A program made the position numbers and the translations under genes. DNA of 59,364 nt from Promethearchaeota archaeon (GTDB lineage: Archaea > Asgardarchaeota > Lokiarchaeia > Sigyniarchaeales > SOKP01): positions 124,786-184,149 of the forward strand of contig JAHPZI010000001.1 in the NCBI GenBank assembly GCA_019058295.1, given 5' to 3'. How positions within the stretch are numbered: the first letter of the stretch is position 1; every line of letters starts with the position of its first letter. Below the pieces are notes generated by a model. That model had not been told where the DNA came from, ran no database searches, and was given only the letters and a program-made list of their open reading frames with translations. This document shows, piece after piece, positions 31,946 through 34,288 of the stretch.

Positions 31946-33589
31946 TTATAAACTTGAGATTAACCTTCTTATTTTGGCTATTCGAGAGCTAATTTCATCA
32001 AGATTACTTCTAAGTCCTTCGTTTTGGTTTTTATATTCATAATCATCAATAATTCCACTATTATAATTATTACTCAACTCTTTATAGCCCTTTTCTAATG
32101 AATATCTTCTTCCTTCAAGTGCGATTAGTTCCTGATATAAAGCATCCTTATCTGTGGGCAATGGTTCGTCATCAACTATGGGAACTGGTTTAATCTCTTG
32201 TGGAATTTCAGCAATTATTTTCTTTTTTTCGACTTTTTTCTTTTTGCCTTTAGAAGTTATTTCTTCAGGAGTTTCAACTCCTACAGAAGAAAACACATTA
32301 AACAAATCTTTACCACTTGAATTAATTGATTCAGTATCTATATCTTCAACATCAATAGGAATTATTTCAGGTTTTTTATTAGGAAATATTAAGGATTTTG
32401 ACTCTTCTTTTTGTTCAATTTTCGTTTCTTCCTGAATTTCTTGTGTTTCCTCTGGCATTCCAAATGGGATGGTTTTTAACTTGGATTCTTCTGGAGCTGT
32501 TGATGTCTCCTCTGGTTTTTCAAATAGGAAGGATTCTAAATTGGATTCTTCTGTATCCATTGGTGTTTCCTCTGGCAGTTCAAATGGAATGGATGATGGC
32601 TTGGATTTTTCTGTATCCATTGATAGTTCCGTAATAGATTGTATGATTTTCGGTTTTTTTACTGGCAATGGTATTGATTTTTCTTTTTCCTCATCTAATT
32701 CTGGTTCTATGGTTGATTTAAATGGAATTTCTGAACTAATCTCATTAGTTGGTTCTTCCATAATAATTGGGGTCAATTTTGATTTCTTTTTAGGTATTGG
32801 TGTAATTGGTGGTTCTTCTTTAGGCTCAAGCATATCTTTTAGCTCATCTATAGATACTTGTGAAATACTCGGTTTTTTTGGAACTTCAGTTATGATTTCT
32901 GGCTCCATTTCTTTATCAACACCACTATCCCCTATTTTTTCAATAACTGCCTCTTCAGATTCAATTGGAACTTTGATCTTTAGGGGTTTCTGAGGCTTCT
33001 TAACTAAGGGAATTTTAATTTTTAGGGGAGCAAGTTTGCCTTTTAAATTAGAAGCTTTTTCTTCAACTTCTGGTTCTTGAGCAATCTCTTCTTGAACTTC
33101 TGGCTCTTGAGAAGTTTCTTTAATTCTTTCTTCTTTTTTCTGTAACTCATTCTTAAGTAGTTCAATTGTCCCTTTCAATCCTTCAATTTCTCCTTTAAAT
33201 TGTTCCGAAACTTGAGCCACAATTTCAGTAATATCAATATTTTTGTTAGCAATTTCTGGTTTAGATTCTATATCTTCTTTAGAATCACTTAAGAGGTCAG
33301 TTGACTCTGATTCTACCCCCATATCTCTGAGGCCCAACATCTTTGTAATATTTTCAGCCAATCCGTTTACTTCTTTGAACCATAAATCTAAAGTATCCCA
33401 ATTTTCCAATTTATTTATTGTATCTTCAATTAAATCAGCTTTATCAGGAATTAAATTTTCATCTTTCAGAAGTTTGAAGCCTTGAATTAATATTTCCCTT
33501 GCTTCAATTTCATCATCTGGAGTAGGTTCACCTTCGGTTAATTTCAGAAAAACATGTTTTATTTCTTCAATTATCTCTTCTTCACTCAT
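31946..33589 (-). CDS. hypothetical protein: helical N-domain, coiled coil, long Glu/Pro-rich disordered region, C-terminal helical hairpin
   Basis: 547-aa ORF with E/K/P-rich composition and PEET..TEES-type repeats. Confidence 0.75.
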   Translation of the reverse strand: MSEEEIIEEIKHVFLKLTEGEPTPDDEIEAREILIQGFKLLKDENLIPDKADLIEDTINKLENWDTLDLWFKEVNGLAENITKMLGLRDMGVESESTDLLSDSKEDIESKPEIANKNIDITEIVAQVSEQFKGEIEGLKGTIELLKNELQKKEERIKETSQEPEVQEEIAQEPEVEEKASNLKGKLAPLKIKIPLVKKPQKPLKIKVPIESEEAVIEKIGDSGVDKEMEPEIITEVPKKPSISQVSIDELKDMLEPKEEPPITPIPKKKSKLTPIIMEEPTNEISSEIPFKSTIEPELDEEKEKSIPLPVKKPKIIQSITELSMDTEKSKPSSIPFELPEETPMDTEESNLESFLFEKPEETSTAPEESKLKTIPFGMPEETQEIQEETKIEQKEESKSLIFPNKKPEIIPIDVEDIDTESINSSGKDLFNVFSSVGVETPEEITSKGKKKKVEKKKIIAEIPQEIKPVPIVDDEPLPTDKDALYQELIALEGRRYSLEKGYKELSNNYNSGIIDDYEYKNQNEGLRSNLDEISSRIAKIRRLISSL

Positions 33590-33843: not shown

Positions 33844-34266
33844 TTAAACTCTTCTTCCTCTGTGTCCCCCCTTCCGTCTACAATGGTCGTGCGATTTTGG
33901 AGTAACTTCTTCGATCCTGCCAATTTGTAGACCTGATCTAGCTAATGCTCTTATGCATGCTTGAGCTCCTGGACCAGGTGTTTGAGCTTTATTTCCTCCT
34001 GGAGCCCTAACTTTTATATGAATTCCTCCAATATTTTTATCCCTCAGATCGTTGGCGATTCTAAACCCGCACTGCTTCAACAAGCTATTCGAAATGAATT
34101 ACTTTATCGCTGCATACGGGCTACTTTCATTACGATCCGCCTTGACTACCATACCACCCGAGCATTTAGCGAATGTCTCGGCACCGCTCAGATCGGTGGC
34201 AGTAACTAATGTATTATTATACGAACTATAAATATGCACTATGGCCCATTTTATCTTTTTACTTAT
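33844..34266 (-). CDS. rps11: 30S ribosomal protein S11 (uS11), interrupted by a ~30-nt insertion with an in-frame TAA; probable ATA start
   Basis: A single frame reads [90 protein letters not shown]...[11 protein letters not shown]; follows rps13-rps4. Confidence 0.92.
34076..34105 (-). other. intervening sequence in rps11 (candidate BHB intron or translational bypass element)
   Basis: AAAGTAATTCATTTCGAATAGCTTGTTGAA; its removal restores PYAA-M-QCGFR; it sits at the tip of a hairpin spanning 34064-34122. Confidence 0.7.
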
Positions 34267-34288
34267 CTTTATTCACCTTTATTTATTA

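Follow-up and report, generated by a model that had tools for sequence, protein, structure and literature searches.

A probable BHB-type intron in the coding sequence of the ribosomal protein uS11 gene of a Promethearchaeota archaeon

The gene for ribosomal protein uS11 (rps11) of a Promethearchaeota archaeon, one of the Loki-type Asgard archaea, is interrupted by 30 nt that most probably are a BHB-type pre-mRNA intron, spliced out of the coding sequence by EndA and RtcB; we give this reading a probability of about 85%. The insert lies at positions 34076–34105 of the window, that is, the whole analyzed stretch of 59,364 nucleotides (contig JAHPZI010000001.1, positions 124,786 to 184,149). It is conserved, its structure covaries, the exons that flank it are under purifying selection and the genome under study (G000) encodes the endonuclease. 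From these observations we infer cleavage, the exact cut register and ligation of the rps11 pre-mRNA. The sequence-only reading had offered such an intron as one candidate. This proposal is now well supported by inserts at the same site in four species, covariation in three helices and exact restoration of a Met codon, and further by a putative broad-specificity alpha/beta EndA and by verified BHB introns in other coding genes.

The rps11 gene is located on the minus strand, 3' of rps13 and rps4, and is divided as follows.

34106–34266, minus strand: rps11 (uS11) exon 1, from a probable AUA start (34266–34264) to ...GCG AU (translation, Pfam).
34076–34105, minus strand: putative rps11 intron of 30 nt, with an in-frame UAA at 34099–34101; its deletion restores PYAAMQCGFR.
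33844–34075, minus strand: rps11 exon 2, from G CAG UGC ... to the stop TAA at 33844–33846 (Pfam, purifying selection).
34264–34277, minus strand: Shine-Dalgarno-like GGUGA, a 6-nt spacer and the presumed AUA start, a geometry common to congeners.

Translation of the rps11 frame gives ...KWAIVHIY... and, towards its end, ...GRRV and a stop, and is interrupted by the TAA. It confirmed that both halves of uS11 are in one frame around an insert of about 30 nt, and that its deletion joins GCG AU to G CAG, giving GCG ATG CAG and the peptide PYAAMQCGFR, as had been read from the sequence. This peptide is present in 76 of the 80 nearest S11 loci of species-representative genomes. Exon 1 matches positions 2–45 of the Pfam family Ribosomal_S11 (PF00411; E = 6e-15), with an N-terminus that aligns with the MSK... 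of relatives, and exon 2 (33847–34075, without the stop) matches positions 52–110 (E = 5.5e-17), the two exons being contiguous parts of the family. In the spliced-intron reading, splicing would be obligatory for S11 synthesis, because the unspliced mRNA could give only a 55-residue fragment made of 53 exon-1 codons and Ile-Lys before the UAA.

Between the upstream TGA and the conserved KWAIVHIY, rps11 has no ATG, GTG or TTG. An ATA sits 6 nt past GGTGA, at the position where relatives have ATG-AGT (M-S-K), and the same geometry is found with ATA in G005 and with ATT in G002 and G006. Since ATA or ATT stands at the same spacing, a non-canonical AUA/AUU start of rps11 seems to be conserved in four congeners. 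The use of this start does not correlate with the presence of the intron. Directly downstream of rps11, 31946–33589 (minus strand) encodes a highly acidic protein of 547 aa that is of low complexity and rich in Glu, Lys, Pro and Ile, with a more ordinary C-terminal end. Many archaea have rpoD directly downstream of rps11.

We searched 161 genomes of the class Promethearchaeia for S11, which was detectable in 130. As had been suggested, the comparison of rps11 across the class was informative, both for the distribution of the insert and for the covariation of its stems. A homologous 30-nt insert occupies the identical site in four species, namely G000, G009 of the same genus, and G127 and G078 of another genus. 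The stops inside the insert differ (TAA in G000, TAG in G009, TAA and TAG in G127, two TAG in G078), and in all four species removal of the 30 nt between ...AU and G... recreates the AUG and PYAAMQCGFR. In two further genomes, G104 and G105, S11 is masked at the insert site. The split S11 of G035 was discarded as a further case, the gap being a run of N. Collection-wide scans with a loose pattern for more S11 introns gave no S11 context among the matches listed, which were chance matches. As a separate observation, the PF00411 search finds no S11 in 31 of the 161 genomes of the class, some of them rated 99–100% complete (G007, G022, G135, G090, G085, G089). A second search of G001, G007, G022 and G029 with the exon-2 protein gave no credible match. 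Masking, contig breaks or genes broken by several introns are possible causes of the missing S11.

The closest relative of G000, G005, has an uninterrupted rps11, and the two are sisters at 98% SH-aLRT support. To explain the insert, the S11 tree needs three or more gains or losses, although the AU test did not reject a tree in which the four S11 genes with the intron form one clade (p = 0.079).

The RNA structure was tested as one named structure on a 70-column alignment (20 + 30 + 20 nt) of the four species. Its elements in G000 are listed below, with an arrow at each putative cut.

34113–34120, minus strand: helix A, 5' strand in exon 1, CCCGUAUG, paired with 34066–34074 (also in RNAalifold).
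34066–34074, minus strand: helix A, 3' strand in exon 2, C-A-GUGCGGG, with A 34073 bulged (covariation, RNAalifold).
34109–34112, minus strand: central 4-bp helix, exon strand CAGC, paired with intron GUUG.
34078–34081, minus strand: central 4-bp helix, intron strand GUUG (covariation).
34105–34108, minus strand: 5' bulge of 4 nt, GAU↓A, putative cut between 34106 and 34105.
34082–34104, minus strand: helix B, the intron hairpin, 9 positions with one A.A mismatch in G000, loop AUUUC at 34091–34095.
34075–34077, minus strand: 3' bulge of 3 nt, AA↓G, putative cut between 34076 and 34075, the canonical place between bases 2 and 3.

Across the four species, 94% of cells are paired in this fold and 7 pairs are changed on both sides, covering all three helices. 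None of 500 shuffles matched its pairing and covariation, and when the partners were slid by 1–3 columns as a control, pairing fell to 30–43%. Helix A consists of 8 pairs, with one compensatory change (G-C/A-U) at synonymous sites. In helix B, which also appears in single-sequence and alignment folds, 5 of the 9 pairs show both-sided changes across species. In the central helix, CAGC/GUUG of G000 corresponds to CCGC/CCGG (3 of 4 pairs) in one orthologue and to CUGC/GCAG in the other two. The second pair varies accordingly (A-U, C-G, U-A and U-A), its exon base standing at the third, synonymous position of a codon for Ala. Helices A and B are also recovered independently by RNAalifold.

The hairpin that had been drawn from the sequence of G000 is present and conserved in the four species. 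Folded over 86 nt, the region has a minimum free energy of −23.8 kcal/mol (z = −2.33), and 2 of 200 shuffled sequences did as well. As a BHB, the RNA is stable (−9 to −22 kcal/mol); structure prediction nevertheless places the energy minimum in another fold, which is what one expects of a motif bound by protein. It had also been proposed that the GC-rich codons next to the insert reflect selection on structure. Mostly, this GC richness belongs to the conserved stretch itself, intron-less relatives included, and the GC content of the helix A bases is similar with and without the intron (0.65 vs 0.61). Helix A follows in part from the conserved peptide, because in intron-less relatives a median of 6 of the 8 positions are already paired. 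However, a perfect helix A (8/8) is found in 3 of 4 intron-bearing genes, vs 5 of 90 intron-less ones.

According to the rule described for BHB motifs, the cut falls between bulge bases 2 and 3 (PMC2738675). The 3' bulge fits this rule in the four species (AA↓G, AU↓G, AC↓G and AA↓G). The 5' bulge has four unpaired columns, G or C followed by AU↓A, in 4/4 species, where a canonical motif would have two bulges of 3 nt. Because of this fourth nucleotide, the S11 intron belongs to the relaxed and not to the canonical BHB class. A strict cut between bases 2 and 3 of the 5' bulge would take out 31 nt, a frameshift in each of the four species. The caveat raised from the sequence alone, that strict cutting in the best registers breaks the frame, thus holds, and the motif has no strict register. 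An in-frame Met is obtained in 4/4 species only if the cut follows bulge base 3 and so precedes helix B by 1 nt. Since the strict rule shifts the frame, the productive cut is placed by the protein and not by the known enzyme rule. The GCGA/UUGU register suggested earlier is not the one selected by covariation, which points to CAGC/GUUG.

The main competitor is the same splicing in another in-frame register, which would also remove 30 nt and leave AAG (Lys) instead of AUG in G000. Here helix A would be extended by a C-G pair (34112 with 34075), the central helix would be reduced to 3 bp, and the cuts would fall after GCGA and before the last intron base. RNAalifold prefers this extra pair (columns 14–51, C-G in 4/4 species), and the register obeys the rule of a cut after bulge base 2 on both strands with a product in frame. 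On the other hand, the four species would then carry Lys, Met, Thr and Lys, respectively, where nearly all relatives have Met. We favor the Met register, with its cut after three of the four bulge bases, because the AU of the Met codon is invariant, while position 2 of the would-be codon varies (A, U, C, A), and because the competing C-G pair that closes the 4-bp helix (columns 14–48) is invariant in 4/4 species. On these grounds the Lys register seems unlikely. The two registers predict distinct junction peptides, which would be ...SSPYAAMQCGFR for Met and ...AAKQCGFR for Lys.

In the Met register, the pre-mRNA would fold so that exon 1 pairs with exon 2 in helix A, while exon-1 CAGC pairs with GUUG near the 3' end of the intron; the rest of the intron would form the 9-bp hairpin, leaving one bulge per strand. 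An alpha/beta splicing endonuclease EndA would then cut once in each bulge. The productive 5' cut would be made one base 5' of the intron hairpin, three bases past the central helix instead of two. An RtcB-type ligase would join the exons and recreate the AUG of PYAAMQCGFR, and the 30-nt intron would be released, probably as a circle.

Two EndA paralogues, alpha and beta, are encoded in G000. The alpha paralogue (contig C1, 120809–121414) lies 3.4 kb upstream of the window. Its best relative of solved structure is 3P1Z_B, which is the catalytic subunit in the (alpha-beta)2 enzyme of Aeropyrum pernix (E = 4e-36), and its GSPLGISKPR aligns with the Crenarchaea-specific loop, including the specificity-loop Lys. 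The second paralogue, on contig C26, has no His where alpha has the catalytic His, as read by eye from the alignment, which fits a structural beta subunit. Asgard archaea have an EndA of the loop-bearing (alpha-beta)2 type, whose loop confers cutting of relaxed motifs (PMC5829648). By its sequence, the alpha/beta EndA of G000 is predicted to be of this broad-specificity type, capable of cutting such motifs. No RtcB was found in G000, a genome that is 79% complete; it is present in 8 of 9 congeners, including the intron-bearing G009.

The S11 intron is one of several in coding genes. Similar BHB inserts, which the sequence-only reading had proposed to look for, were found in uL11 and argG of G000. 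The uL11 gene carries a 30-nt intron (contig C30, 126695–126724) which forms a strict hBHBh' motif in a hand fold, with helices GGACC/GGUCC and GGUU/AGUC, the bulges being GU↓A and AA↓A. Once it is removed, the sequence reads GPPIGPVVGPTGIN. The same uL11 site is interrupted in G004, G007 and G006 (28 nt in these three), and the central helix covaries (GGUU/AGUC, AGCU/AGUU, GGCU/AGCC and GGCU/GGCU). In argG (contig C2), a 30-nt intron with helix GAUU/GAUC and bulges AG↓A and AA↓A is present, and its removal restores LMYSGGLDTSCMIKW. The rtcB genes of G002 (C3, 15750–16250) and G006 (C13, 33200–33700) contain a 29-nt strict BHB intron with UUGG/CCAA, located between GVGY and DINCG, and removal restores GVGYDINCG. 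Finally, S11 of G142 (C91, 7962–8944, minus strand) has no insert between PYAA and MQ. Its intron lies between GGMVV and KADRDE instead; it is a strict BHB intron of 29 nt that shifts the frame, with GGUU/AACU. The same gene is therefore interrupted at a second site in another lineage. According to the hand folds, the introns of uL11, argG, rtcB and G142 S11 all obey the strict rule of a cut between bases 2 and 3.

Two further observations concern possible members of this class. The uL11 gene of G006 (C4, 64065–67097, minus strand) contains two inserts. One is the 28-nt BHB intron, between GPAV and GP, and the other, of about 36 nt with two stops, lies upstream between TGG and ASGGPP. In G000, C1 contains at 113981–114008 (plus strand), about 10.8 kb before the window, a candidate hairpin of 28 nt whose 8-bp stem and CGUA/UACG exon-intron helix are both perfect.

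A whole-genome census with a structure descriptor gave as many raw BHB-like matches in the reversed genome as in the real one (2462 vs 2428). Filters based on ORF fusion were confounded by gene boundaries; the strongest filter left 20 real matches and 2 in the control. Among the candidates that were translated, those other than S11 and uL11 resembled gene junctions or were ambiguous. A covariance model built on S11 and uL11 (R1) revealed no further true members in G000, its six weaker matches being in intact ORFs or spacers.

A programmed translational bypass, of the kind known from T4 gene 60 and from mitochondrial byp elements, had been the other explanation put forward from the sequence alone. 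Ribosomes would take off at the AAG before the UAA and land on an AAG 27 nt downstream, giving PYAAIKQCGFR (junction peptide ...AAIKQCGFR). As in those systems, rps11 of G000 is interrupted in frame by a short stretch that contains a stop and a hairpin, between matched AAG codons (AAG-UAA ... AAG). Unlike in those systems, the matched codons are not conserved and what is conserved is the pairing of a splicing motif. Codons that properly bracket the insert are found in G000 only; G127 and G078 lack a matching landing codon and have two stops each, and the only codon match of G009 would leave six extra residues. The covarying exon-exon and exon-intron pairings are not needed for bypass. Moreover, the sister introns of 28–29 nt (uL11, rtcB, G142 S11) share the build and follow the endonuclease rule, and a translational mechanism cannot explain the intron class because introns of these lengths shift the frame unless removed from the RNA. 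We therefore regard bypass as very improbable.

It is just as improbable that rps11 is broken or split, either as a decaying pseudogene with a functional copy elsewhere or as halves translated separately, the second from UUG 34083. The in-frame stop, the incompleteness of the genome, the in-frame UUG codons inside the G000 insert and an AUG after the insert in G009 would agree with it. However, G127 has no in-frame start after its last stop and G078 has none before codon 22, and no Shine-Dalgarno motif was seen by eye before the UUG in G000. A second copy was also searched for, as had been proposed, and PF00411 finds one S11 locus only in the 3.2-Mb assembly, 21% of the genome being missing. 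In the lineages that have the intron, purifying selection on both halves is strong. Synonymous and non-synonymous codon differences over both exons are 41 and 5 between G000 and the intron-less G005, and 65 and 9 between the intron-bearing G127 and G078. Our comparison indicates that rps11 with its insert is a functional, selected gene in these lineages. In addition, the insert is kept at exactly 30 nt, with a covarying structure, in four species.

That the insert arose in assembly or sequencing, or is a rare variant within the population, is conceivable for a metagenome-assembled genome but can practically be set aside, because independent Logan assemblies of two samples carry it identically and three other species carry a homologue. 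The contigs of the probable source run are identical to the window over this region, and the second sample, from the same study, has a contig of 178 nt (34015–34192) that bridges the insert with 0 differences. No contig without the 30 nt was found in the assemblies of the two samples, which settled the check for an assembly error.

The S11 intron, read as a spliced BHB intron, resembles the cbf5 pre-mRNA intron of Crenarchaeota (Aeropyrum, Sulfolobales, Desulfurococcales; PMC2738675). Both are short coding-sequence introns with a BHB-like, in cbf5 often relaxed, motif; both go with a heterotetrameric broad-specificity EndA, are gained and lost among related species, and restore the frame upon removal. 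They differ in that the S11 intron belongs to an Asgard lineage (Promethearchaeia) and to uS11, and is one of several coding-gene introns in its genome. The borders of the cbf5 intron fit a cut between bases 2 and 3 in both bulges, whereas the conserved 4-nt 5' bulge of S11 needs a cut after base 3. Splicing of cbf5 was shown by cDNA, whereas the S11 intron is known here from DNA; among the sequencing runs listed as RNA, none contained its sequence. In the literature searched, cbf5 of Crenarchaeota is the only documented archaeal coding mRNA spliced by tRNA-splicing enzymes (PMC2738675), and the full-text search found no papers on introns in Asgard ribosomal-protein genes.

Asgard tRNA genes heavily interrupted by BHB introns are described in a 2026 preprint (10.64898/2026.10.13.758758, citing Marck and Grosjean 2003), which does not treat protein genes. 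With archaeal and Asgard tRNA introns, the S11 intron shares an exon-exon helix h, a 4-bp helix H, an intron helix h' and one bulge per strand. It is also similar to them in size, is presumed to depend on the same enzymes and is likewise patchily distributed, with repeated gains. Unlike in tRNA, the host RNA is an mRNA and the exon parts of the motif are constrained by codons. Because this mRNA is also read by ribosomes, S11 splicing would compete with translation.

The closest resemblance is to the uL11 intron of G000. Both introns, like that of argG, have a 1+9+5+9+4+2 build, and 22 of their 30 bases are identical, including the AAAGUAA start and the UCGAAU loop closure, while the 4-nt intron segment of each is complementary to its own upstream exon. 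They differ in that the uL11 intron is a strict hBHBh' with 3-nt bulges. An identity of 22/30 arises by chance 4–6 times in this 31%-GC genome and is not significant alone, and a covariance model built on uL11 introns only (R2) does not retrieve the S11 intron. Because no score is significant, homology rests on shared build, register and context; judged from these, the S11 and uL11 introns are likely, though not proven, to share a common ancestor. More tentatively, the two mini-introns might be copies of one mobile 30-nt element, spreading among the mRNAs of essential genes by EndA/RtcB reverse splicing followed by reverse transcription or recombination, with the 4-nt segment serving as a re-targetable guide, paired with the exon of each new host. 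We consider this a possible, though doubtful, scenario. If it were true, Asgard coding-gene introns would be gained by a protein-enzyme route unrelated to group II introns.

The conserved 4-nt bulge raises the question of how a loop-bearing alpha/beta EndA chooses its cut when a bulge is one base too long. As exon sequence makes up half of the motif, this case shows RNA structure constraining synonymous sites of a core gene. That splicing capacity is coupled to ribosome synthesis, as had been suggested, is speculation. In G002 and G006, the interrupted gene rtcB encodes the presumed exon ligase itself, and its mRNA would need the ligase to mature. Gene-calling programs will cut such genes short, with consequences for phylogenomics and for completeness estimates from marker genes. 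Altogether, interrupted protein genes with obligatory mRNA splicing (S11, uL11 and argG, and rtcB in relatives) would occur in this lineage with no spliceosome.
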